Below, one piece after another: positions 3,515 through 61,564 of a stretch of 64,000 nt of DNA. The stretch lies in the NCBI GenBank assembly GCA_001938485.1, contig MQRK01245143.1:2971-66970 (forward strand). Reading direction: 5' to 3'. This DNA comes from Girardia tigrina. Its lineage: Eukaryota. The notes beneath the pieces were generated by a model, which was not told the DNA's origin, searched no databases, and saw nothing but the letters and a program-made list of their open reading frames with translations. The number at the start of each line of letters is the position of its first letter. Positions within the stretch are counted from its first letter, which is position 1. The position numbers and the translations under genes are program-made.

Positions 3515-3760
3515 TGGTCAGAAAATCGAAGAATTTTTCAGTCGCTCTTGATCGTTATAATAAAATTATCGAACTTGATCAAAAAAATTGCACGTTTTAT
3601 ACTAACGTTGTGCTGAACGTTTCGAGAGAGGAGAATATGCGCAATGTATTGTAGTGTGTGATAAATCCGTTGGTCGGACGTGAAAATCAGGTTGATTATA
3701 AATTATTCGCCAAAACCGGTTCAAGAGCGCGGAATGCTCATTTAAAATTAGATGATCTAA
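3515..3760 (+). pseudogene. STIP1: STIP1/Hop (STI1) TPR2A fragment
   Basis: Frameshifted translation KSKNFSVALDRYNKIIELDQKNCTFYTNV..FERGEYAQCIVVCDKSV..GRENQVDYKLFAKTGSRARNAHLK parallels Hop TPR2A (KKDFDTALKHY...[20 protein letters not shown]). Not in the ORF track. Confidence 0.8.
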
Positions 3761-3941
3761 TTTTGATATATACTTGAATCGAACTCCGAATTTAAACTGT
3801 TCACATCTCTTTCCTTCTCACCCCAGGTGGATCAAAAAAACTTCATAAATATCGCAAAACAATTATTATATCCTCGTCCATTATTTCGATTAATTCCTCT
3901 GTAATTATTTCTACCATTCTGCTATGAATTATTATTATTTC

Positions 3942-3997
<56 letters not shown>

Positions 3998-4107
3998 TCC
4001 ATCATCTCAAAGTAACTACACCACACTCTGTCAATGTCGATCGAACAATTCGTTATTATTTCCTTTGTAATTATTTCTACCATTCTGGTATGAATTATTA
4101 TTATTTC

Positions 4108-4155
<48 letters not shown>

Positions 4156-4471
4156 AAAGCAATTTGAAAAATATTTATCGGAACACCATGTTCCAGACAC
4201 CGTTAAAAAATTAACGAAATGTTCGATCGACATTGACAGAGTGTGGTGTAGTTACTTTGAGATGATGGAGAATGAGTGCTTGTCACAGTTATTTGAATCG
4301 GAAGACGGGGCTGGAACGGCGAGCCGCAGAGATCTGGCGATCGAGATGAGCGAGTAAGAGAGCGAGGGTGATGGTGGAGAGATTACGTTGTGTTTCTCCC
4401 CCCCCATGTCCCGGAAACACTGATTTCCCAACCCCGGGACGCCACCATCACGGTACGCCCGCTCTGGCGCC

Positions 4472-4544
<73 letters not shown>

Positions 4545-4725
4545 GAAATAATAATAATTCATAGCAGAATGGTAGAAATAATTACAGAGGAATTAATCGA
4601 AATAATGGACGAGGATATAATAATTGTTTTGCGATATTTATGAAGTTTTATGATCCATCTGGAGTGAGAAGGAAAGAGATGTGAACAGTTTAAATTCGGA
4701 GTTCGATTCAAGTATATATCAAAAT
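3760..4725. repeat. nested inverted duplications with (AAT)n/(ATT)n microsatellites
   Basis: 3760-3995 is inverted to 4472-4725, and 3994-4055 is inverted to 4212-4273. 4057-4153 is a direct partial copy of the left arm. Confidence 0.9.
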
Positions 4726-5915: not shown

Positions 5916-6791
5916 TAAAATTTATTTTGTTGTCGAATTTAAAAATTACGCCTCAAAAATTTTTTATTCAATTAACCTACAAAATTTTATAATTGTGATC
6001 AAGCACACAAATATAAATTATACCACACAAATTTTCACGCCATATTTATTAAAAGATCAAGACCAATGAATTCTTTTATTTTTCTTTCAAATTTCATCTT
6101 TTTTCGAATCGCGCAAAAAACCTCTCAATCACTTTTTCGCAGTAAATTGAAAATCAACCATTTACAACAATAATTTCATTGAAGCGTTTAAACAAACGCA
6201 ATTTTTTTAACTTATTCAACAATAATAATCAATTCGATAATTTTTCCGATAATTAATTTTTTTCTATAATTGATTTTTTTCGTTTCTTTAATTATTATTG
6301 TTTTTATTTTTTTAAATAAAAATTACACACAGAAAATAAAAATTGACCACTTAAAATACATATCAAAGCTAATTCAAAACAATTTATCACAATTTCTGTT
6401 TAGTTCCAAGTACCAAATCAATTCATTAATTTCGATGTGGAAGAATCATTGACACCGAATTGCGAGACATCTTCGTTCATATTAATTGATACTTCATTGA
6501 AATTAGAATTCAATAATTTGATTTGAATTTTTAAATTTCGATATTTTTCACTAATTTTGACTAGAAATTCCGATAAATCATCTTCGAACATTTTTTATCG
6601 ACAGACAAAGATAAATTTAACATTCTATTTTTGAAAATTTCAAATAATATTTTGATTTTTGTGATGGAACCTCGATGAAATTGGTAACTTAAAAGATGAA
6701 AAAAAGATATTATTAATAAAAATTAGACTTCAAAGAGAAAAAGAACTTCAGATCGGAGCGATCAAAGGTAGACCTACAAATGAGTCAATTA

Positions 6792-14030: not shown

Positions 14031-15525
14031 TTTAGTAAAATCAGGAGAACTAATCATCATGAAAATATATTTTAAATATAACACAATAACTAATGATTAT
14101 TTAAACAACCATTTATTTTCGAACTTTCCGCTCATTGTTGTGCGAATGAACATATTCTTTTAGCCATTCAATTCGTCGTGGCTTTAATTTGCACTTTTTG
14201 GATTTATCTTTAAACTTGCATTAGATATTCGTCTAAAAACTTCTTCAAGTCTGTTGTCGTATTCTAGTTCTGATGTTCCATAGACTAGTAAATCATCCAG
14301 TTACACTTATACACCTTTATAAACCATAGCAAGAAAAATCTCATGCAATAATGCTTGGAACGTTACAGGAGCTGTACATAATCCAAAGGGAAGTCTGTTG
14401 AAGTAATATTTCCAAATTTTTGTGCTGAATGCTGTCTTAAACTTGAATTCTTCTGTCAGTTCCACCTGGTAATAAGCATTCCCTAAATCAATGGAATTGA
14501 ACATAACAGAAGCAACCAATGCATCTAATAATGCATAAATACCAGTAACTGGAAACGTAAATTTCTCAGTAATAAAGTTTATTCCTCGAAAGTATAAGCA
14601 TATTCGAATTTTACCATCTTTTTTTAGAATAACCACCAGTGGAGAATTCCAAGAACTTTGACACGGCTTTATTGTATCTTTTTCTCACAATTTTTCTATT
14701 AGTTCTTTAACGTCTTTCTCTAAATGTATCGGGAGTCGTCTTTGATTTACTGCAATCAGCGTTCCTGTCGTCTTTATATGATATTTTAAAATCTTTGTAT
14801 GACCTAAATCGAATGATGACATCATAAAAATCTTACCATAATTTTAGATCATTCGACTAATATTCTTGGAATGCGAAAAACATTCTAGGACTTTATTAAT
14901 AGACTTCATGTTATCAATTTGTTCAATTTTATTTTCTGTTTCAATAATAAAAACTTCTTTCAATCTCAGTCGAAATTTCTGCATCGTATCGATTCTTCTA
15001 ATAAAAGCTGGTACGAGACGTTTGAAGACATAAATCTCGATCCATGCATTTTTTGAATTCCATGTTATCTTCACCTTACATATCCCAATACAAATTTCAT
15101 CTCTATGTGAGAAAACACCCATTAATCTTACATTCGATGAAAAAAAATTTGGAGATCCAATCCTCTTCCAACACGCAACATCCATTACTGACACTGATGC
15201 CCCAGAATCCCACAACATTTCTACTTCAACCTTATTACATCTCACCATATTCCACAATCTCCCATCTAGCTTCTGATGTATCTTCTTCTCCGTCTTCGGA
15301 CTTCTATCTCGAGAGTTTATATCCTTTACTGACACAACCCAACCGAAGACATAGGCACAGTTGGCTACCTTGCATTTTTTTGCTTCATTCTCCATGACAT
15401 TTTCATAATCTTCCATTTTAAATGAAATTTAATCGTCTTCAGTCTTCTAAATTACCTTCTTCTTCTTGGATACATAACACTGGCTTGGATGTTCGCCTAT
15501 GCCAGTTTACAAATGGATAATCACG

Positions 15526-18500
15526 TGTCACGACCCATTCGTTTGTAACAATTTTGCGCGCTCAGAGCCTCCGGTGACTATTAAGGGTCAGTCACAACCC
15601 GGTTTGAATTTATTACCCAACTACGAATGTCTATATTTCACTTTTACATTACAGGGTCGGACGCCTCTTCTCGCTCGACATTTGCCTGGCAGTGCCGAGT
15701 CTGAAGGGCCTGCGGGTTCGAATAAAGACGGGATGGGCTATGGGCCCCCCACCTAGCGGAGTGTCGTTCGGGGATGATTTCCGTGATGCGTTCATAATCG
15801 TCCTCTTTATGTATTGTCAAACTTGTTGCACTGTTGTGTTATGTGTCGTGTTAAACTTGCGGCAATGTTGTGTACGGTTTTATCGAACCGTGGCATTGTG
15901 TTATGAATTTTCACGACTTAAGGCACTGTTAAGTTAGGTTATGTTGAGTTTGTAACGCGAAACTTGCGGCCCTCGCCGAAAGATCGCTTATACTCATAGA
16001 ACTTACAAGATTATCCTGTAATGTCAATTCATCTTCGGCGGTGCAACTACATAGCCCTTATATTATCAACAAATCCCCGGGCAATCGTTTATATGTTTTA
16101 CGTTATACGGTTTCGCAAGATACCATCGTGAGACTAATCTGTTGTATAATTAACATTGAGGGATTCGTTATTTAAATTGTCATAAAACTCTGATATCGAT
16201 TTGACCCATCAATTATTAGCAATTCCTAATTAACAAAAGTGTAACGATTCCGCTCAAGATAATTTAAATTATTAATAGAATCCCTTATTGACAAAATAAA
16301 ATTTCGCACTATTTCATTCAAAATAACTCAACATTCGCAAACGCAATTTTGATTCTTAACTTCTTTAGAAAAATTCCTTAGCGAAATTCTTTATCGATAT
16401 TCGCAAATCCATTCCGTTACATTTTATTATAATGTTAGCAGGATAAAATATGAAACGATTTCGACTCAAATTGCCAACTTAATTTACTAATTTAATATTC
16501 ATAATTCGTTAAGGATTCGGAGTCATTACTTTATACAATTTACGTATTAGAGTAAACATCAGTTCTACCTAAATTAGAATCGGTTAAAATTATCAGAACT
16601 AAAACTAGAGTAAATAAAATTATCTTTCAATTCAAATTCATAAATTTATCGTTTAATCCGAAAACTAATCCTAAAAATCAATTTTATCCATCGGAAATAA
16701 TCATAAAACTAAATAAATATAATATCGTTGTTATTTGACCTGCACCGATAGGAAATCGTTAAAGTTAATTTATTTATATCGATAAAGTCGCATTTCTCAA
16801 AACTGGTTGCCTTCGCGTTTGTTTTAATTATTCAAATTGCCTACCGACCTCTGGCCACAATTTTAACCCTTAAAAAATTGTAACTAGCATTTTTTAAACT
16901 ATTTTCGCCGAAATGATCGTATGAATCGATAAGGTAATTGTTAATTTTGTTAATCTCATTTCTGGACCTCAGATTTCACTTTACGTATGAGCCAGCTTAA
17001 CCACATTCACTCGAACAACCTCAAATTCAAGATAGATAAAAAATTTTACGGTCGAGGCTCATACATTATAATCAGACCCCTAGTTTGTCGATAAACTAAA
17101 ATAAAAGTACGACCTTATAAACCACCAAAATCTTTAATAACATAGTTAAAAATAATAAAAAAACAATAAAAAAAATCAGTATCATTCCTTGCAACATTAA
17201 TTGCCTATAAAATATTAATAGCAGTAACTCGGAGCATAGAATAAATTATATTTGGACATTAAAATGTTTCCCTTAATTGTTCGATCGTTCGACACGGCGA
17301 ACCTGCGGGTCTATGTCATCGTTAGGTAGGATCTCGCGATTTCCTTGAAGGAACGTTTCAATAGGTATCGACACTACCTCTACAATAATCAGGTCGGCGC
17401 GATTGCCGATGCTCTTCCATCGGGCGTTCGAACGCAGGTTTCCTCTGGGCATAATAAACGAGTGCGGCGACGGGATGATGAAGTGATTTAAACTAGGATA
17501 GAGACGAAAAACGGGTTTTGATTATAATTCATAAATAATAAACTATACAAAATATAAAATCATCATTTAAAATGTTTATTAATTAATCAGTAGTTCATAG
17601 ATATACAAAATCAAAATTACAATAATTGATAGACGCTGCTAGTCGAATACCTCGGTCGAAATCTCGGTCGGTTTAAGTGAATTTCTTCTGGTAATGTCGT
17701 CAACGGTTCTCTCGGAACTAGTTTCTCGGGATCGTTTTCTCAAATATTGGTTTTCTCGAGACGGTTCAAAGCGGTTCGTAGAATTTTGTAATGTTTTGGG
17801 ATGTTGAAGTGTTGTGAAAAATTGTGTCGTAAAGTTGTGAGATTATGAAAATTGTAGTTATAAAAATGTGCTGAAAATTTTTGTTGCAAGCAGTGTGATA
17901 AAAGATTGCGTTGTAAAAATAAAATTCAGAGTGCGAACTGGTCCGAGTGAGTGTTATATTTATAACACTCAATGTTCTGCTTGTTGCGACATATTTTTCG
18001 TGGCCGTATCTGGTTGGTTGATGCCACTAATTTCGAANNNNNNNNNNNNNNNNNNNNNNNNNNNNNNNNNNNNNNNNNNNNNNNNNNNNNGGTCACAAGG
18101 CCTCTTTGTCACCGATGACTGTTCATCGTGTGACACCGTTCTTTATTCATGGCCTGAATCATCGTAAGTTTTATTTGCTGTCTTTGTTTGTTAATTAGCC
18201 TTTGTTTTGCTTTATCTAATTTACATTTCTTTGCAGGGGTGTAACCCTCTTCAGGAGAATGCCATGGCTTCGCGGACCACACCCGGGGACCGGCCTCGTC
18301 GCAAGCTACGCGTGGAGGGTCGGATGACGCCTAAACAACAACGGGTCGTCCAAGAGGTGCTTTAATTAATTTTGGTCTCTTTTTTCATTAACTATTTTAT
18401 TTTGTAGAGCGGCTAACTTCTTCTCAACGTTTTCGGGGTTTAGCAGTTTAGTTCCGGCGACTTATTATGCCATTTGGTCCTTCTCATCGAGTAAGCTTTC

Positions 18501-18702
18501 AATTCACTTATCCAATTTTCTTTTTATCTAATGTTTTTTAGTTGCGACACAACGCTGCCCCCTCGACACGGACAACCAAAGCGATCCTGGGACTTAACTT
18601 TTTGTTCAAAATAAATGTATTAATTCCCTCAGTCTTCCTTTTGATATTTCTTTTTATAATTACATATGTTATGTATTATTATATTATTTTTCGACCGCAA
18701 CA
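15526..18702. mobile_element. 3.2-kb LTR-like insertion (giant solo LTR or gap-collapsed element)
   Basis: Ends TGTCACG...CGCAACA, with 4-bp TSD CACG at 15522-15525 and 18703-18706. N-gap at 18038-18090. Confidence 0.8.
18091..18597 (+). pseudogene. spliced four-exon ORF of unknown function inside the LTR-like insertion
   Basis: GT-AG introns at 18164-18236, 18357-18407 and 18491-18541. One frame runs through all exons with a single TGA (18325), stop at 18595, AATAAA at 18610. Confidence 0.6.
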
Positions 18703-20439
18703 CACGGAATCTGTGACCTTCTTTACCGCAAATCGAACAAAAGCCATCCAATTGACAATGTTTTCTTCGATGTCCAGTTTCTCCACAGCAAAAACATTGT
18801 CCTGGTTTGAGGGGTTCAAATTCAATTGGAGGTTTACCCCACAGCTTGTAATAAAATCTCTTTGCTTTTGTTTTCATCGATTCAGTTGGAAACTTCCCTT
18901 CTTCATTTGACTTTTCATATTGACGTCTTTGTGTTCCATTCTTCATATCTCACTTGACATAAAAGACATTATGATTTTCATAACCACGATTCAAAATTGG
19001 CCTGGGACCTCTTCGATATGTTTTTTTTACTTCTGTCGCATAATTTGGAGGATGTTGTTTTATTGTGGCAATCGGTTGGTTTGGTGTTATACTTTCCAAA
19101 GCTGTTACCATTCTCGACGTCTTTCATTTGGCATCTTAGGCTCCAAAATAAGAGTTTCTTTTAATTTCGAATTTTGTAATCCTTGAACGATGAAAGCGGA
19201 AATAATTTCTTCTTTTGAGATCTGACTCTTAAATACTTCCCACCATTTTTCGCACTCGAAGTCTGAAACACTGGTACCGTTCATCTGGTCTTTGAGCTGA
19301 TTCACAAGGATCTCTTACTTTATCAATTATGCTCCTTGGTTTTGAAAAAATTTGGAAAAACCACTCTGTAACTGAGTTGTTTATCAGATCTTTATTGTGA
19401 TGACAATATTCCTGGCACAAAATTTTAGAGTCGCATTTAAGCAGCATATCGAAGGCAAATGCTAGATCCATTTGATTGAATATGGCGAAATCCATTGTTT
19501 GTTCAATCCATTTCATTGGATCTTGTTCCTGTCCGTCGAAAAAAGCAACTTTCGCTGCAAAAATTTCCTGTGCTGATTGAGGAAGTTTTGCGAAAATTCT
19601 TCTTCTGTCTTCCATCTTCGAAATTGCATCGACATTCATTTTATTGTCCTCATAGTGGTCGACAGTAAAATCAGGAGAAATAATCATCATAAAAATATAT
19701 TTTAAATATAACACAATAACTAAGAAGTATTTAAAAAACCATTTATTTTCTAAATTTTTTTGCTGGTTTTCTTTAATATATCATTTTTAATTGTAAAACT
19801 TTTGTATTAATTTACTGTTTTAAAAATTTTCAAATAAAAAAAATAATAAACTTTTTGGCGAGATGCAAATTTAAAGTAACTCCTACGAATAATATAATCT
19901 GCTAGATCAACAGTAGATTGGAATAGATCACAGAACTTTTCTTTAGATAGTTTTTCGTAAATAAATGAGGCGAAAATTTCGACTAGTAATGTTTATTATT
20001 AGTGGAAGCGACAGTCAAATTGAGTAGGACAATAGATATTTGGTATATAAGTCAATTATACGGATAACAGGTAATTTAGTACTGAAAATCCGGTATTTAA
20101 AATGAGCGGTAAGGAAAAAATTAGTTCTGTTGATTTGTCCTGATTGAGACGTTGGGAAAAAACCCAGCAATGCAATCAAACAAAAGTTGACTGACCAGCA
20201 ACTCGTCCAGCGGTAAGTTATTCTGCTTCTTTAATTTTTCTTCGATTGTTTAATCAATTATTTAATTTTTAATTTCTTATTTTTAAAAAATTATTATTAT
20301 AATTTGTCACTGGAGGGGGTGGGATTTTCTTTCACTTTCTTTTCTTTAATTCTCGATTTCTTCTCCCTTTACAATCAATAAAAATAAACAATAATAATAA
20401 TACACAACAAAATTATCGCCACCCATACACAATTTTTTT

Positions 20440-24409: not shown

Positions 24410-26690
24410 AAATAACAACAAATAGACTGATATACGCAGACGACCTGTGCTTACTGGACGAGGATCATGGAAACATTGAAGAAAATTTTAAGATACTCAA
24501 TAGAGTATTTCTAAACATGGGGCTGAAGATCAACATTGGGAAGACACAGATCATGAATCTCAATGGTCCCAGATGTGCAACGGCAGGAAGTAAACTTATG
24601 ACTGCAGCTGAAAGGGTGGATGAGTTCAGTTACTTGAGGTTAATAATTAAATGTGGGGGAAACTCCGAAAGAGATATGAAATCAAGAGTTCAGAAAGGGA
24701 CAACGAAGCTGAGAACACTGAAATCATTGTTAAAGAATAATACATTGTCTCTCCAGAACAAAAAGAACATCATCGCTAGCTGTGTATACCTGATGGTTTA
24801 CTACAGAAGTGAAAACTGGAGAACAAATGTAGATCACATCCAAAAGATAACAGCGTTCCATAATCTATGCAGTAGAAGAGCACTGGGAGTTCATAAAACA
24901 GAGAAGATCAGAATGGAACTATTAAATATTGGATTACCGTAATTAGCAAAGAGAAGATTCATATATCATACTAAACTAGAACTGGGAGAATGTATAGAGA
25001 ATGTGAAGTGGATCAGTCAGTGTGAATTATTGGATTGGCCAAAAAGTCATTGCGTTTTTCAGTACGTCCTAATAAAAAGCTTGAAAATATAAAACGATGT
25101 AATAAAATTTAAATTCATTTAAATTTAAATATATTCTGAAACCTTAATTTTCAGACTATGTTTATACAAAATATTAATTGATTTTGTTTTAATTTATTAC
25201 TGTACCGTCCATTCAAAATGGAAAATCAAAATGAGCATATTCGTCATATTTTGCTGCATTATTTTCGCAAAAGGAATACCGCAGTGCAAGCTCATAAGAA
25301 GATATCTTTTGTATATGGTAGTGACTCCTTAAAACTTTGACAGTGTCAATACTGGTTTTCTAAATTTTGTTCTAAAAAATTTCATCTGAAAGATGCACCA
25401 CGCTCAGGTCGAACAGTTGAAGTTGATGGAGACAAAATAACAGCACTGATCAAATCTAATCCACATATGACGACAAGAGAAGTTGCAGAGACTCTGGAAA
25501 TATCAAAATCAAGTGTTGGAAGTCATTTAAAGAAACTTGGATTCGTCAATAAACTCGATATGTGGTTACCACATGAACTGAAAGAAATTCATTTGGTGAA
25601 ACTTATAGACACTTGTGATTCCCTTTTGAAGCGAAAACAAAGTGATCCATTTTTGAAGCGCTTGATTACGGGTGACGAAAAATTGATTGTTTACAACAAT
25701 GTGGAACGCCGACGATCATGGACAAAACATGGTGAGCCTGCCAAAACGATCCCAAAAGCAGAAATTTACCAAAAGATCTGGTGTGATTTTAAAGGAATTG
25801 TGTTTTTTGAACTCCTTCCGAGGAATGAAACCATCAATTCAGACAGATATTGTGGTCAGCTGCAGAAATTGACTCATTGAATTCAACAGGAACGTCCTGA
25901 ATTGGCAAATCGAAAAGGAGTTGTAATTCAGCATGATAACTCAAGACCGAACACAAGTTTGACGACTGGCCAGAAACTCTTATCACTGGGTTGGGAGGTT
26001 TTGTCGCACCCACCGTATTCTCCAGACTTGGCCCCATTGGATTTTCACTTATTTAGATCACTGCAGAATTCCTTAAACAGAAAAACATTCGCCAGTGATG
26101 ATGACATCAAATCGTTCCTGAATGCAAAAAAACACAGAACAAAAAATATTGACATAAAAATGTTTATAAATCATCAAATCTCCGTCAGACAAATGATGGC
26201 CTGGACGGCCTTTTTGCTGACAAAGGCAAAGGTTTTTATGAATCAGGAATAATGAAGCTACTGGAAAGGTGGAAGAAAGTGATTGAAAATCATGGACAGT
26301 ATATCGTGTAAAAATATTTGTGCATCCATGTCATTTTTTGATAATAAATATTTTAGTAAAAAACGCAATGACTTTTTGGCCAACCCAATAATTGGTGGAA
26401 AGAAAGTAAGTGGAAGGAAGAAGCAACACCTGACAAAATGCCTCAAAGTGGACCTGAACTGGCTATTTGGAGATCAGTTTGACTTTGACAATTTTTGTAG
26501 AATAGTACAGAGTGAAGTTCTACTAATTTTGGATGGAAAAATTGAAAAGATTCTGCGAACGCGAAAAGTGAACCGAGATGGCGACCCGAATTATGAGACT
26601 CATCATGCCAGGACTTCGACCAAGTGGATTAATGCTTCAAGTTGTTTGCTGAAATCACAGAGTTCAACAAACATTTGAGACGAAATCATG
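24410..26690 (+). mobile_element. RTE-like LINE fragment interrupted by mariner
   Basis: LIYADDL, GLKINIGKTQIM and FSYL motifs. The frame rejoins across the mariner (CEL / IGGKKVSGRKK). Homologous to 21862-23245. Confidence 0.85.
25030..26388 (+). mobile_element. mariner transposon, decayed
   Basis: Near-perfect 30-bp TIRs TTGG(A/G)TTGGCCAAAAAGTCATTGCGTTTTT and TA TSD. Motifs WLPHEL, ITGDEK, HDNSRP, YSPDLAPLD. Confidence 0.96.
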
Positions 26691-30663: not shown

Positions 30664-31617
30664 ATGAATTTTATTGAACCTAATAACTCAATAATGAAAT
30701 CTTTTCACCAGTTAATTCAGAATCATTGGATGAACGCTTTACAAGTAATTCCACCAGTAACCACTAGATATTCTCCCTTTTCATCCAGCACTGGTAGTTT
30801 TACTTCTCCCGGCAAGAGCGAGATTTCAGACCAAGACGAACCATTAAATCTTTCTCTTAAGTATTCAGACTCCCAAAGTCTCAATCAACATAACAATATA
30901 TCACAAGCAAGCCCATCTATATTTAATCAATATGGCATTGTATCTCCTCTCCCTTTATCAACCCATGTTCCTATAATAATGCCTCATATATTTCAAAGTC
31001 TATTTGCCACAAGACCAATTCTACCAAATATTTCAAAATCGAGATCAATGGCTGAATATTTTCCAATGCAGGTGAATAATTCAGATATATGTCAAAAGCA
31101 GCGCAGAAAATCCACACCTGTTAAAATGAAGAAATCCCGTTCATTTAAATGCAATCAATGCCGAATGATATTTACATGCTTAGCCAGTCTCTCGGAACAC
31201 ACCCAAAATATTCATGGAGGTTATAAATGTCATATTTGCGATACCAGTTTCACCCAGAGATCTAATTTGCAAAGGCACGCTTTGAGGCACGTTGGATTCA
31301 AACCTTATAAATGTGGAGTTTGTTCAAAAGAATATTATAGAAAAGATCATTTAATTCGTCATATATCCTTTAATCATCCAATGGTGAATCCTAAAGAAAA
31401 TATAATTCAAAGATTATCATCTTCTGAGAGTTTAAATTTTATAGATTGTCAAACAGAAGGGGAGCCCAGTAATGAAAATGATGACATTGTTCCGTTAAAA
31501 CCAATTTCTGGTTGTTCCAGTGAAATATCAAATGAAGATCAGAATTCCTTAGAAGAGGAAAATATATTTTTAAAAATTGAGACTTCAGAAGGAATGGATG
31601 TAGATATTTTAAATTAG
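30664..31617 (+). CDS. zfp-1: flatworm ZFP-1-family three-finger C2H2 transcription factor
   Basis: Intact 317-aa ORF with three C2H2 fingers carrying QRSNLQR, a GFKPY linker and RKDHLIR (ZFP-1 family signatures), plus a PLNLS CtBP-type motif. Begins immediately after a splice acceptor. Exact paralog not determined. Confidence 0.85.
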   Translation: MNFIEPNNSIMKSFHQLIQNHWMNALQVIPPVTTRYSPFSSSTGSFTSPGKSEISDQDEPLNLSLKYSDSQSLNQHNNISQASPSIFNQYGIVSPLPLSTHVPIIMPHIFQSLFATRPILPNISKSRSMAEYFPMQVNNSDICQKQRRKSTPVKMKKSRSFKCNQCRMIFTCLASLSEHTQNIHGGYKCHICDTSFTQRSNLQRHALRHVGFKPYKCGVCSKEYYRKDHLIRHISFNHPMVNPKENIIQRLSSSESLNFIDCQTEGEPSNENDDIVPLKPISGCSSEISNEDQNSLEEENIFLKIETSEGMDVDILN

Positions 31618-55140: not shown

Positions 55141-56309
55141 TTTTTGTGAGGAATATTTTAAATTTGGTATGTTGAAATCGGTATGTTGAGTTTAGTATTG
55201 GGAAATGTGTTTCTCCCTCCCAGATGGAAAATTGATATTTTGGATGTTCACGAAGAATAATTATTCGAGTATAATTTGCATTTTAAAGTACAACATAAGA
55301 TATTTTAAAAACTTTAAAAATATTAAATCGTTTCAAATTTTAATATTAAAAATTTAAATAAAGTAAATAGCTTTTAACTAAGTTTTAAATTAAATAAATG
55401 TTCTTTCTTTACATAAAATCATTTTTTAAATAAAATTAATATGTAGATAAAATTATTACTAGAATTACAAAATTTGAACTTCAAAAATAAAATCTGAAAA
55501 TAATGAAAAATTTGTTCGAATAGTTGTTTATTAAAAAAACATTAACTAAAATGTATTAATTTAGAACGATGTCGAATTATGAAAGCTTTGCAGAGAGTTG
55601 TCCAAAAGACAATTCTAATTATATTGAAAATAAAAGTTCCAAAACCCATGTTAGTGTTCTTAATATGGCGACACACGACCACGTGATTCCGAACATTAGA
55701 GGTCCGGAGATTTTTGATGGATCAGAAACAAAAGATCCATCAAAACGAGCTTTAGGGATACGAAGATAATGGGATTTTCAGAGGAGAGGAAAATCTTATT
55801 AGCAACACTATATATGACTCCGGATGTCATAATAAAATATGAAGCAGCGTCAGGTGAAACATGTGAAGAGAAAATAAGATCCGCGTTTTCAAAGGAAAAA
55901 TCTATCCTGGATCTAATGAAAGAATTGGTAGAAATGAGAATTGGATCCAGCGATCCAACAGAAACATTTAGAAAGGCTGATGAAATCATTGAAAAGTTAA
56001 TTGAGAAAAAGTTGGGTAAAAAAGAACTATCAAATTTGGTCTACGCTAATCTGATAGATGATGAGAACGTGCAGAAAGAAATAGCTGTTAGAAGTGTCAA
56101 GAAATCTGAAGAGATTGAAGACATTCAAACGAGAATGTTCGAATATGATAAAAAGAAAAGAAATGCTCCTGTAGCGGCATATAACACAAAAAGAGAAAGT
56201 GAATGGAGAACAGTGGAAAATAAAAAAAAGAACACCAAGACCACAGAACGAGAAATTCATAGAACAAGAAACAAGAAGAAATTTTAAAGTGCAAAAAATT
56301 ACCTTTTGG

Positions 56310-56698
56310 CAGTGCCGTAACTACAGGGGGGCAAAAGGGGGCAATGCCCCCCCGCAAATTTTTCCAAATATGACATCCTTTGTTTTCGTCATGAGCTTGA
56401 AAAAACAAAGCGCATATATAAAAATACCTATTCTCTCTCGATTAATCAAAATCTCATTGGTTGCTAAACTCATTTCATTTTTATAGCAATTTACACACCA
56501 CTATCATACACCATTTACATGTCTTAACGTCCGTCACCAGCACGCAATAGCCCTTTCATTAGCTTAAAAAGGATTTTTTGAGTCGCTCAAGGATTTACCA
56601 TAGGCAATAGAAAAAAAACGGAAAATTCGTGTAATTTTTATTGCCCCTCTGCAAATACGGTTTGCCCACCCGTTCAGGGATTCCTAGTTACGGCACTG
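56310..56698. mobile_element. hAT MITE inserted in the gag zinc knuckle
   Basis: 14-bp TIR CAGTGCCGTAACTA, TSD CCTTTTGG/GCTTTTGG. Confidence 0.92.
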
Positions 56699-57060
56699 GC
56701 TTTTGGGCATGCCTCGAAGAAGGGCATGTTAGAAGAGAGTGCCAAAACGTGAAGTTTAGTCATTGTAATAGAAAAAAAGCATTTAAGAACACTGTGTTAT
56801 GAAAACCCTAATATGTTTAGAGAGCGTGATCAATGGAAAAGGGATAATGGAAATAATCGATGGAACAAAAGGCAAAATTACTCTAATCAACGGTATAGAG
56901 AACGGCCAACATACACGAATAGGAAATACCCAGTAGCAGAAGTGGACGAACTAGGTGATGAATTGTACATAAGAGAAGATTCTAGAAAAGGGGAATATTC
57001 TGAAGGAACGTATAGAAGAGAAGATGAAAAAAGACTGGAATTGCCCCGAGGTAACAGAAA

Positions 57061-57171
57061 ATTGTAGCACACTGATCACTTCTCCCTGTGGTCTTGCGTC
57101 CTCGTTTCCCTGATCATTTCAGGGAAACGAGGACGCACGACCACAGGGAGAAGTGATCAGTGTGCTACAAT
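57061..57171. repeat. 53-bp-arm palindrome at the gag end
   Basis: 57061-57113 versus 57119-57171, one mismatch, 5-nt loop. Confidence 0.93.
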
Positions 57172-58161
57172 AGGAACTCAATGAAGATGTATGATTGATT
57201 GTATGTATGAATGTGTTTGTGATTGTATTTGAAAATGATGTGTTTGAAAATATTCCTCTGGAGATATGTAGATAAGATAATGAACCTGAAGAAGACGATG
57301 GAATATGTGCTAGTATGGATATAGAAAATGAGAAAAAAATAAAAAAGAATACTGATATTACCAAAGTTTAACATAAATTATAAAGAATATAAAGGACGAC
57401 CAAGTATAGAGTTCTGAACAAAGAATAAAAATGTTAAATACCTGTTAGATACAGGAGCTCGAGTCAACGTTATTAAAGCATAGATAATTAAAAATATGAA
57501 AGATGTCACGATCAAAGAAACTAAAAGACGTATACATTGTCTGAATGATTCAGAACTTATAAACTATGGTATTGTTCAACATAAAGTGATAATTGAAAGA
57601 ATGCATAAAGCAGTGGATTTCTTTGTGGTCAAAGATTTAGATCCAGAAATGATTGCATGAATAGATTTCTTGGACAAATTCAGGATTAAGTTAAAGAGAG
57701 AACCATCAAATACTAATTAGTTACTGGTACTACGAGACAATCCATCAGACGAGGATAGACTGAGGAGAATAAAAGAACAAAAATGAAAACAAAATTGAAA
57801 ACCAACTAATAGAACTTTTAAAAGAATTTAAATCAATATTTATGGCCGACAAATGGTATTCTGGAAAGACGTCACTGACCAAACACAAGATCGAAACGCA
57901 TGGAGAACCAGTTTTGGTGAAACCTTATCGACAACCAAAACATTTCGAGGAAATACTGGACGATATTATTCGAAATTATGAAGAAAACAATATTATAAAG
58001 AAATGCAGTTCACCGTGGAATTTTCCTCTAGCTTTTGTTTGGAAAAAGGAGAAACAGGACATTCGAATGTGTGTAGATTTTCGGCAATTGAATAAAATCA
58101 CCGTTAGACCTGCATTCCCAATGCCAAAGATTGAGGAAATGCTGAATGCACTAAATGGAGC

Positions 58162-58700
58162 TATTAAGAATACCAACATGGGTTTTCAAACTTTTATTTT
58201 CATTACAATCAGAATTGTCTTTTGGACAACTCTCAGCAAAACTCTCGTCATTCGACATCGTTCTAAATTGATAATTTTTTATTAATGTTTGTTAATAAAC
58301 AATTATTCGAACAAATTTTTCATTTTTCTCTGATTTTATTTTTAAAATTCAAATTTTGTAGTTTTAGTATTAATTTTTATTTACATATTAATTTTATTTA
58401 AAAATTATTTTATGTAAAGAAAGAACATTTAATTAATTCAAAACTTANNNNNNNNNNNNNNNNNNNNNNNNNNNNNNNNNNNNNNNNNNNNNNNNNNNNN
58501 NNNNNNNNNNNNNNNNNNNNNNNNNNNNNNNNNNNNNNNNNNNNNNNNNNNNNNNNNNNNNNNNNNNNNNNNNNNNNNNNNGAACATCTAAAATATCAAT
58601 TTTACATCTGGGTGGGAGAAACACATTTCCAAATACTAAACTCAACATACAAAATTCAACAAACCAATTTCAACATACCAAATTTAAAATATTCCTCACA
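58162..58700 (-). mobile_element. same-family LTR inserted antisense in the RT
   Basis: Reverse complement of the flanking LTRs with perfect 5-bp TSD GGAGC. The RT frame rejoins as LNGA / KYFSTIDLGNAY. Contains an N-gap. Confidence 0.92.
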
Positions 58701-61564
58701 GGAGCAAAGTATTTTAGCACAATCGATTTAGGAAACGCATACCATCAAGTGGAACTTGAAGATGAATCAAAAGTCAAAACAGCATTTTCAACAAAGGATG
58801 GCCAATACTGTTTCAAGAGAATGCCATTTGGAATTACGGTAGCACCAACAACGTTTCAAGAACTGAGGGTAAGAGTTTTGGGTGAATTAAATTGGAAAGA
58901 GGCAGTTGTGTATTTAGACGATATATTAATTTTCACAAAAGACAAGGAAGAACACCTCAAACGAATTGAACACGTATTTAGTAAAATTAAGCAATCGGGT
59001 CTGAGAATTAATCCAGATAAATGTCACTTTTTGGTTGAAAAGACAAAGTTTTTATGATATGTGATCAGCAGAAATGGCATAGAAACAGATCATACAAAGA
59101 TCGATGCAACTAGCAAGTTTCAGAATCCTTCATGTATAAAACATTTGAGAAGCTTTTTAGGCTTAACGAACTATTACAGGAAATTCTTAAAAGATTACAC
59201 ATAAAGTATTAAGATTATCAAAAGTATTGGAAGAACTATGCGGAAAGAATAAAGAAAAAAAGCTAATATGGACGGAAGAATGCAACGAAGCGGTTCAAAA
59301 ATTAAAAGAAAAGATAATCAATACACCAATACTAGCATACCCAGATTTCGGAAAAGAATTCATATTGGACACGAACGCTAGTTTTGACACCATTTGCGCG
59401 GTGCTATCTCAGAAAGATATTATGGAAGAGAAAGAGTGATTGCATATGGATTCCACAAAATGAACAAATATGAATTGGGATACTGTATTACTTGAAAAGA
59501 ACTGCTAGCAATCTACTATTTTACACAACACTTCAAACACTATCTGTACGGCAAGAAATTTCTATTAAGAACGGATCATAAAGCCATTACCTTTATGATG
59601 ACGACAAAGAACCCAATCACTCCACAATTTCAAACTTGGATAAATTTTCTCAGTGGGTTGGATATGACAATGGAATACCGGAAAGGTGAAAAACACTCTA
59701 ACGCCGATGCAATGTCGAGAAATTTCTGTGAAATGTTGGTAAAATGTCAAACTATTCACGAGAAAGCTAAGAAGGGTAAAGTTAAAACAAGAATCCTAGC
59801 GTTAGACGATGAATCCAAAGGATTCAAATGGCAGAAAGATAGTGACGAGATAAAACAGATTAGATCAGATATCAGAACTGGGAAAACAAAGAAATGGTTA
59901 CTGAAAGATGATATCGTAACGACAATGGATAACAAATACTGGATTCCGAAAGGTAAAAAGACTGAATTCGTCGAAGAAATACACAAGATGCTGTGTCACG
60001 CTGGTAGCAAGAAAGTTTATAATTATTTGAAAGATGATTTTGATATGGAAGATATGAGAAAAACGGTAAAGGAAATTGTGCAAAGTTGTATGAATTGTTA
60101 GAAAAGAAAGACCCTAACAACAAAACAAAAGAGGGAAACATATTAAACAATCTGCTGATGAACCGTTCGAAAAAATATATATGGATTTCTGCGGACCTTT
60201 TAAAAGAAATATTAATGTATGTCAGTACATACTAGCCATAATCGATAAATTTAGCAGATACATCAGTTTCAACGCAGTAGCTCATCAAGACGAGAAAACC
60301 ATGTGAAAGGTATTACTAGACAAATGTTATGGAAATGCGGACCACCAAAAGAAATCCATGTCGATAGAGGAAAAACATTCAAATCAGCCATTTTTAAAAA
60401 AACATCAAATAGATTTAAAGCTGAGATAGTATATTCCAGTCCTTACCACCACAATACCAATGGGATTGTTGAGAGACAATTCAGAACAATTAGGGATGCC
60501 ATGAATATACGGATGAAAGACGAGGTCCACAAAGATTGGACGGAAATCCAGCCAGAAATAGAGTTTATACTAAATAGCACAATTCAGGCAACCACAGGGA
60601 TATCTCCAGCAGAAATAATTTTTGGTAGGAAACTAAGACATTGGTGGGAAAAACACCGGGGAAAAAGACATGTCGAGAAGGAAATGAATAAAAGCAGGAC
60701 ACAAACGAAACGAGTATTCCGAATTGGAGATAAAGTGCTTATAAAGAAAGAAAACGTAATGGAGAATGAGGATCGATACATGGGCCCAGCCACAATAAAG
60801 AACCGACGACATGAAAAAAGTTACGAGATAAAATTAGATGATGGCAGAATATTGATCAGAAATGTGGAATGGCTAAAGCCATTTAAATCGAGGGGATGTG
60901 AGGAATATTTTAAATTTGGTATGTTGAAATTGGTATGTTGAATTTCGTATGTTGAGTTTAGTATTTGGAAATGTGTTTCTCCCTCCCAGATGGAAAATTG
61001 ATATTTTAGATGTTCACGAAGAATAATTATTCGAGTATAATTTGCATTTTAAAGTACAACATAAGAAATTTTAAAAACTTTAAAAATATTAAATCGTTTC
61101 AAATTTTAATATTAAAAATTTAAATAAAGTAAATAGCTTTTAACTAAGTTTTAAATTAAATAAATGTTCTTTACATAAAATCATTTTTTAAATAAAATTA
61201 ATATGTAGATGAAATTATTACTAAAATTACAAAGTTTAAACTTTAAACATAAAATCTGGAAATAATGAAAAATTTGTCCGAATAGTTGTTTATTAAAAAA
61301 CATTAACTAAAATTTATCAATTTAGAACAATGTCGAATTATGAAAGCTTTACTGATAGTTGTCCAAAAGAAATTCTAATTGTATTGAAAATAAAAGTTCG
61401 AAAACCCATGTTAGTGTTCTTAATAATTCTAATATTCAAAGTGGAAAAGTGTTAACTGAAACTAATGAATAAATTGTATAAATAAATAAATAAACGAATA
61501 AATTGTATAAATAAAAGTATAGGGAGAAAAATTATATTATAACGAACTATATAATAAAATAATA

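Follow-up and report, generated by a model that had tools for sequence, protein, structure and literature searches.

A tandem array of spliced antisense introns in the long terminal repeat of a Burro-like giant gypsy element of Girardia tigrina

Introduction

The layout of the planarian giant gypsy elements Burro and GYPSM1 is described in PMC6431247. Here we analysed a 64,000-nucleotide stretch of the Girardia tigrina genome (hereafter the window), which carries at 15526-18702 a solo long terminal repeat (LTR) of a Ty3/gypsy giant element of this kind, and found contigs that join exactly across introns on its antisense strand. Like Burro and GYPSM1, as the accessible part of PMC6431247 presents them, the parent element has a Gag with CCHC knuckles, a ubiquitin-like stretch, homology to a fusion glycoprotein between gag and the protease (PR), a dUTPase between PR and reverse transcriptase (RT), a long upstream accessory region and multi-kb LTRs. 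Unlike them, it gave no Pfam match at E 0.01 for BIR, BCL2-like, MATH or ankyrin domains in the 16 open reading frames (ORFs) scanned here, which come from gapped copies. That part of PMC6431247 holds nothing on LTR introns or antisense RNA, and the word "antisense" does not occur in it.

Spliced antisense LTR RNAs are already known. Those of the deltaretroviruses human T-cell leukaemia virus type 1 (HTLV-1 Hbz) and bovine leukaemia virus (BLV AS1/AS2) are, as here, antisense and spliced; they are LTR-driven and polyadenylated, while the start and the poly(A) site at our locus are predicted (PMC10186651, accessible part). According to the same source, the deltaretroviral antisense RNAs start in the 3' LTR, and that of HIV-1 runs on into internal genes. 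Unlike Hbz and the BLV RNAs, our array has its 3-5 short introns, its exons and its predicted poly(A) signal all within the LTR, and its unit is tandemly repeated. Every solo LTR therefore carries the whole unit. HBZ and BLV antisense RNAs also extend into internal genes.

Our family resembles Grande gene23, RIRE2, Retand and micropia in that antisense transcription is retained in most copies of a gypsy family, and the micropia RNAs are non-coding (PMC7264820, accessible part). The antisense ORFs of Grande gene23, RIRE2 and Retand lie between pol and the 3' LTR, whereas here no ORF is conserved and the splice architecture is. In the accessible part of this review the word "intron" does not occur. 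An LTR-internal tandem antisense intron array with its own predicted poly(A) signal was not found in the literature listings, nor in the accessible parts of PMC6431247 and PMC11410931; the primary Burro paper may describe the LTR. The tandem array lying wholly in the LTR is a new variation on a known theme, and its mechanism is one that we infer.

Retroelements are usually intronless, and hosts can use the absence of introns to tell them from genes. This family keeps 2-5 spliced introns in its LTR over some twenty diverged subfamilies, with no protein explaining them.

Contigs carry spliced joints at the antisense introns

The three introns of the window LTR (Table 1) are 73-78% AT. The initial annotation had named them as short AT-rich GT-AG introns of 73, 51 and 51 nt, and their splice sites are intact across the copies of one subfamily (A). 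The AATAAA that it had placed after the exon array is also present.

We sought the predicted junctions in sequencing contigs. Eight sequencing runs came into consideration, five of which contain a small share of the window. Runs X1-X4 come from one sample (S1, study P1), which is RNA only by guess, and their contigs are unstranded; for the window, the statements below refer to 15 of the 18 joints. Introns 1 and 2 were both joined in run X2. The X2 contig joint over intron 1 (18164>18242) has 4 letters between its sides and equals the exact junction in a related copy. Two X2 joints lie over intron 2, namely 18354>18406 (GT..AG) and 18356>18414 with 6 letters between.

A copy of a second subfamily (L066, subfamily B) has five predicted introns (5916-5969, 6082-6133, 6251-6318, 6434-6484 and 6586-6636). 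Seven of its 10 listed joints, from runs X2, X3 and X4, match these introns, and three match no predicted intron. One X4 contig crosses one L066 junction and continues into the next exon. Spliced-junction patterns for one subfamily A and one subfamily B intron had 0 matches in the genome. Run X6, represented by 2 contigs only, contained no spliced joints among those displayed. Since seven GT-AG introns are lost precisely, splicing would be implied even if the runs were DNA. The splice strand was read from the GT..AG orientation, and it is antisense to the element.

The splice architecture is conserved across the family

Copies were searched for in the same genome assembly (1.43 Gb, 255,254 contigs). 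Among the 39 copies of subfamily A, splice dinucleotides are preserved in 465 of 466 cells, and the intron interiors differ in 336 of 5,284. When shared alleles are counted instead, there are 0 in the 12 splice columns and 41 in the 139 interior columns, which is a modest signal when taken alone.

The right ends of the copies sort into many diverged clusters. In an intron scan of 26 cluster representatives, the antisense strand received 54 calls and the sense strand 2. At least two introns were called in 18 representatives, one in 3 and none in 5; among these five, one resembles a chance match of the motif, and truncation or gaps affect some. The plus-strand intron calls of 15 full LTRs are all found in the first 1,033 nt from the LTR 5' end. 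A profile of the 120-nt exon unit found it in 22 of 28 clusters, as 1-3 tandem units, and the intron and exon together are often spaced at 163-171 bp (~170 bp). Among 20 scored clusters, AG stands at the unit start in 19, a strong donor lies upstream in 18, and the palindrome TGAnTCA, which we take to be AP-1-like, stands beside the donor in 14. The mean identity of 29 exon-unit representatives is only 54%. By sequence comparison, it is the splice architecture and not a protein that is the conserved feature of the array.

Of 87 right ends, 75 contain ATGTAT and 51 contain AATAAA on the antisense strand close to the LTR 5' end, with a U/GU-rich tract after these motifs. A poly(A) site predicted inside the LTR would confine the antisense RNA to the LTR. 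LTRs that retain their link to the primer site or the 3' junction also have the array, which therefore passes through reverse transcription. Introns antisense to the genomic RNA persist, and this is the only orientation in which introns of a retroelement survive reverse transcription. The idea that the introns persist in this way had been put forward initially, and it is supported by the orientation of both junctions (see below).

A further intron had been suggested at 15602-15654, near the other end of the LTR. We rejected it, since it is not conserved as an intron: it reads GT..AG in only 27 of 67 distinct left ends and AT..TG in 31 of them. The X2 joint 15600>15656 has unknown letters between its sides and can be a diverged spacer.

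The insertion is a solo LTR of a Burro-like giant gypsy element

The insertion has TG..CA ends at 15526 and 18702. It had been described as flanked by a CACG target-site duplication within a gag zinc knuckle, and the window sequence confirms this, the gag being that of a gypsy element on the minus strand. The empty site (15521>18703) is present in contigs of runs X1 and X2. The concern that the assembly gap at 18038-18090 joins unrelated sequences is ruled out by these contigs together with copy L061 (3,097 bp without N). Since L061 aligns end to end with the window LTR, the 53-N gap is no false join or chimera. Another copy, L062, likewise spans both ends of the window LTR.

The family is large, with 786 exact matches of the right-end motif in the genome against 1 control match. 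A perfect 4-bp duplication was found at 10 of 15 recovered full LTRs; three of the other five (L078, L144 and L160) are LTRs joined to the primer site. The right and left flanks in the first sets of copies are mutually unrelated, and most copies are therefore solo LTRs.

As had been proposed, we oriented the LTR by its primer-binding site and polypurine tract, and both sides pointed to the minus strand. Beyond 15526, the minus-strand LTR end is followed in other copies by a common primer-site sequence (164 exact junctions). This sequence is the complement of the 3' end of tRNA-Pro(TGG) genes in the same genome, which were located with a pattern derived from the primer site; a first tRNA-Pro pattern gave nothing. 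Beyond 18702, the opposite LTR end is preceded by a common internal 3' junction (51 exact), linked to integrase, and the purine run on its polypurine-tract side is short (GGAGGAA). The tRNA-Pro primer site and the common 3' junction mean that the LTR reads on the window minus strand and that the introns are antisense. A primer site on the plus strand was also considered: 30 of the 46 right ends followed by TGG were examined, and none had a common flank beyond identical duplicates. A non-autonomous DNA transposon with TGT..ACA ends, presumably Ginger-like, was ruled out by the primer site and the retroelement parent; the ends share only few inverted bases.

A parent was found in contig C241284, which has a 5' LTR with an A-type U3 and an intron module 92% identical to that of the window. 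Its internal order is several kb of ORFs without Pfam match, Ty3 capsid (weak), zf-CCHC, ubiquitin-like (weak), Monjiviricetes fusion glycoprotein, PR, dUTPase (weak), RT, RNase H (RH) and integrase (IN), with PR-RT-RH-IN in this domain order. Nine of its 16 ORFs scanned against Pfam had no match. The fusion glycoprotein (PF24664, between gag and PR) matched at E 9e-25 and 2e-48; the dUTPase (E 0.002, between PR and RT) and the ubiquitin (E 0.008) are both below the cut-off. From the primer site to integrase, C241284 has about 20 kb of internal sequence, and its ORFs continue further; a total length near or above 30 kb would be expected of a Burro element, and no intact element was among the copies seen. 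By its domain layout, the parent element is Burro-like. The view that the insert is a solo LTR of a giant gypsy element with multi-kb LTRs is therefore supported by the junctions, the target-site duplications and the parent domains.

Some related contigs extend this picture of the internal region. In L141, L153 and L158, the first 6-7 kb past the primer site hold coiled-coil-like ORFs without Pfam match, before gag, and L141 has a repeated block of ~500 bp there. A sense ORF of up to ~750 codons lies between integrase and the 3' LTR (last 2.3 kb) in L220, L212, L213 and L211; pieces of L163 related to this stretch gave no Pfam match. Tandem tRNA-Pro(TGG) genes, ~650 bp apart, are present in L221 and L222.

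The spliced antisense RNA is likely non-coding

The exons had been joined into a single spliced frame, with one TGA read as a decayed CGA, and interpreted as an accessory protein gene. This TGA (18325-18327) is TGA in 38 of 38 scored subfamily A copies (of 39), so it did not arise by CGA decay in the window copy alone. Upstream of intron 1, the exon measures 73 nt in 12 copies, 74 nt in 14 and 81 nt in 1 (27 copies), so that the frame shifts. In the last exon, 1-nt indels are common among subfamily A copies. The window copy has a 33-codon ATG frame in the 120-nt exon, and its ATG is kept in 26 of 38 copies.

On shared alleles, omega (a rough count without a tree) was 0.91 in the annotated frame, and the 12 tests of frame and strand gave values of 0.62-1.55. 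Sorted by length modulo 3, the internal exons divide as 11/8/9, with some ends mis-called by the scan. In 15 diverged exons, conservation by position modulo 3 is 0.51/0.53/0.53 (period-3 p = 0.90), and stops occur in 9-11 of the 15 in each plus-strand frame. Pfam gave no match for 4 of 4 exon peptides, and Rfam 0 matches at E 1. The fixed stop, the frameshifts, the exon lengths and an omega around 1 argue against both the single frame and the LTR-encoded protein, and on this sequence evidence the spliced antisense RNA is likely non-coding.

A conserved fold was not seen either: RNAalifold found 0 consensus pairs in the 15 exons (conserved fold z 0.10), and one of the 15 folds clearly better than its shuffles (z -3.9). 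In the best 5-bp helices of 29 units, pairing was 0.83 on the antisense and 0.70 on the sense strand, a difference that has no null comparison and that G+T richness favours. Aligned exon units rarely contain internal gaps (25 of 29 have none), in a set chosen by a profile that favours gap-free matches. Helical periodicity of 10.5 bp was the top peak in the 15 exons and was dropped, being not significant in 29 units (p = 0.13). Exon divergence driven by editing was dropped as well, since the plus-strand exons are not T-poor (T 0.28, A 0.19). In the 29 units, one of four tracks, that of SS dinucleotides, also peaks at 6.25 bp (p 0.002), which we leave uninterpreted.

Taken together, the insertion, its ends, the duplication, the three introns and the AATAAA of the initial annotation stand, and its single ORF and fourth intron do not. 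From its interpretation, the solo LTR of a giant gypsy element, the reality of the introns and their antisense persistence were borne out, and the protein-coding accessory gene was not supported.

LTR modules and predicted promoter

The features of the window LTR and its surroundings are collected in Table 1.

Table 1. Features of the LTR insertion and its site in the window
Feature	Position	Strand	Basis
Left target-site duplication CACG	15522..15525	.	sequence
Solo LTR of Burro-like giant gypsy; element sense is the window minus strand	15526..18702	-	primer-site junction beyond 15526 and shared 3' junction beyond 18702 in other copies; parent domains
3' module, common to all subfamilies examined, predicted U5 or R/U5; adjoins the tRNA-Pro primer site in 5' LTRs	15526..15780	-
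Variable AT-rich spacer, fourth intron of the initial annotation	15602..15654	+	GT..AG in 27/67 distinct left ends
Variable middle, predicted R/U5, swapped between subfamilies at ~15780, 16828, 17806, 17930	15781..17929	-
Predicted core promoter on the sense strand: TATAAATA (17964-17957), with TCGCAC 32 nt further downstream and a start predicted at ~17932	17929..17964	-	sequence
Assembly gap, 53 N; gap-free copy L061 passes straight through	18038..18090	.
Antisense exon before intron 1, ends in TGAnTCA palindrome (18155-18161) beside donor	18091..18163	+	sequence; 5' end predicted
Antisense intron 1, 73 nt, GT..AG	18164..18236	+	GT 38/38, AG 37/38 copies; joint in X2 contig
Antisense exon, repeated unit of ~120 nt; fixed TGA 18325-18327 in the annotated frame	18237..18356	+
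Antisense intron 2, 51 nt, GT..AG	18357..18407	+	GT 39/39, AG 39/39; two X2 joints; 0 genomic matches of its junction pattern
Antisense exon, 83 nt	18408..18490	+
Antisense intron 3, 51 nt, GT..AG	18491..18541	+	GT 39/39, AG 39/39
Terminal antisense exon with predicted poly(A) signal: AATAAA 18610, then ATGTAT and U/GU-rich tract	18542..18702	+
Right target-site duplication CACG	18703..18706	.	sequence
Host gypsy gag with CCHC knuckles, split by the insertion, resumes left of 15522	18707..18900	-	sequence; empty site in X1/X2 contigs

The predicted TATA box sits past the intron array on the sense strand, approximately where homology between subfamilies switches (~17930). In subfamily B, TATAAAAA takes its place, with TCGCAC at the same distance as in the window (A at +32). 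CCAAY boxes lie ~37-55 and 75-85 nt upstream of the TATA box in clusters 0, 1, 17, 20, 21 and 22 (25 clusters), and several of the 25 have no strict TATA. With the start predicted here, U3 would run from 18702 to ~17933 and would contain the introns. A transcription start near 15785 is a possible alternative. An intron scan of the variable middle gave no plus-strand introns.

The predicted TATA box falls within a perfect inverted repeat (17948-17969; arms of 10 bp, loop of 2 nt) and could serve both directions. Compared with L063-L080, the window LTR is a mosaic of three modules, namely left 255 bp, middle and intron module, that are swapped at the points given in Table 1. Recurrent swap points between subfamilies are the pattern that template switching between co-packaged genomes would give.

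A proposed role for splicing beside the promoter

In our best reading, short introns arrayed antisense in the 5' part of the LTR are removed from an RNA that is likely non-coding, and their splicing likely keeps the promoter active or shields it from silencing. We give this a probability of about 0.5. A putative bidirectional promoter in the TATA/CCAAT region near 17930-18020 would fire genomic RNA leftward and divergent RNA rightward. The divergent RNA would be spliced 3-5 times and end at the poly(A) signal ~90 nt inside the LTR end. Splicing beside the promoter would then boost the LTR promoter in cis or shield it from host silencing, and the intron and exon unit would have been tandemly duplicated and reshuffled among subfamilies. 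The splice sites are maintained, unlike the coding frame and the fold, which makes the act or the layout of splicing beside the promoter the likely target of selection. The duplication and reshuffling of the unit would likewise place selection on spliced introns beside the promoter, together with DNA motifs such as TGAnTCA, and not on a protein.

The precedents are mammalian, as reported in the accessible parts of the sources. In mouse cells, splicing raised nearby initiation in both directions (10.1101/565184); for enhancer long non-coding RNAs (lncRNAs), splicing is selected for and goes along with enhancer activity (PMC8803168); and introns give protection from HUSH (PMC8770142). Host loci with selected splice signals in non-coding RNA near a promoter would act in the same way as our array, except that here the carrier is a mobile element and the effect is argued by analogy. 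Planarian gypsy and Burro elements are PIWI targets (PMC8532177, accessible part), which would supply the selective pressure.

Several points weigh against this reading. Every spliced joint comes from sample S1 (study P1), RNA by guess, in unstranded contigs with sides of 19-47 nt, and X5, the only run on record as RNA, has unspliced contigs alone among those displayed. Intron 3 has no exact joint among 15 of the 18 window joints. The 16 copies of subfamily B have deviations in 10 of 274 splice cells. The start and the end of the antisense RNA are predicted only. The cis effect is extrapolated from mammals, and HUSH-like surveillance in the host is an assumption. In PMC8770142, as far as its accessible part goes, protection came from the intron itself, splicing was not needed, and the intron was in the protected transcript; here the introns are on the strand opposite to the genomic RNA. 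Moreover, the exons retain more sequence and spacing than splicing needs, which the cis reading would explain only partly.

We therefore weighed other explanations. The spliced antisense RNA might act in trans as a self-limiting regulator, being exported, pairing with the U3 end of the genomic RNA and feeding double-stranded RNA (dsRNA) or PIWI-interacting RNA silencing, or blocking replication, as has been suggested for antisense RNAs of other retroelements. Its complementarity to the genomic RNA's 3' end is complete, and its exons show partial sequence conservation. Non-coding antisense RNAs of micropia have been discussed with a dsRNA model (PMC7264820), and BLV AS1/AS2 are spliced and probably non-coding (PMC10186651; accessible parts of both). 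However, pairing in trans does not require introns, and yet it is the splice sites that are most constrained; subfamilies whose units are ~54% identical would be unable to regulate one another, and RNAalifold gave 0 pairs (z 0.10). We consider this explanation unlikely, if still to be reckoned with. A smaller chance goes to the array functioning chiefly at the DNA level, where GC-rich factor-binding units, repeated at ~170 bp (near the nucleosome repeat) with AT-rich spacers, would form a U3 enhancer and splicing would be a by-product. TGAnTCA beside the donor in 14 of 20 clusters, the frequent spacing of 163-171 bp, and the CCAAY and TATA boxes next to the array would fit such an enhancer. 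The strand-specific retention of GT/AG (54 against 2) and the exact spliced joints are unexpected for mere spacers, and the 10-11-bp periodicity of 15 exons was not significant in 29 (p = 0.13).

The remaining two explanations appear improbable. For an LTR-encoded accessory protein or microprotein, as initially proposed, speak the spliced multi-exon layout with a poly(A)-like signal, the 33-codon ATG frame in the window copy, and the gap-free exon units (25 of 29, in a set favouring such matches). Against it stand the TGA in 38 of 38 copies, the ATG in 26 of 38, the 1-nt indels, omega of 0.62-1.55 in all frames, stops in 9-11 of 15 exons, the period-3 p of 0.90 and the lack of a Pfam match for all four peptides, so we regard it as very doubtful. 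Slightly less credit still is due to a neutral passenger, a host gene fragment captured antisense and now decaying. Antisense capture would preserve introns, and a function of the array is deduced rather than demonstrated. Nevertheless, splice sites persist while the exons are at 54% identity, units are duplicated, Rfam gave no match, and of 131 profile matches in the fetched loci only 6 are followed by more than 1.3 kb of sequence lacking a recognised LTR end.

Returning to the cis reading, we tentatively extend it to the history of the family. The element may have evolved an array of host-style introns, duplicated and reshuffled it, and put it to work opposite the sense strand of its LTR, as an enhancer powered by splicing or as a host-gene disguise, in the orientation that survives reverse transcription; it may also have spread the array to hundreds of sites as solo LTRs. 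If the introns act in cis, nature would offer here a mobile element that has borrowed splicing to remain expressed, and its many copies would allow a test of whether splicing of divergent RNA drives a promoter. In genome annotation, hundreds of such solo LTRs would appear as small multi-exon genes or lncRNAs.

Other observations in the window and related contigs

A second gypsy element lies at 55154-61425 of the window, with two LTRs ~90-96% alike and an inverted LTR piece at 58162-58700. At 3760-4725, there is a long inverted repeat (160 nt, 100%) with (ATT)n tracts, which may be a foldback element or an assembly artefact. Polinton/Maverick-like ORFs (polymerase-like and capsid-like) were seen by eye in L143 beyond 4.1 kb from the primer site and in the right flank of L061. 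A mariner-like transposase remnant (25341-26252, plus strand) lies between identical 79-bp blocks (23848 and 26119), which also enclose a LINE-like RT piece. Finally, a single 317-codon ORF with C2H2 zinc fingers at 30664-31617 on the plus strand is likely an exon of a host transcription factor.

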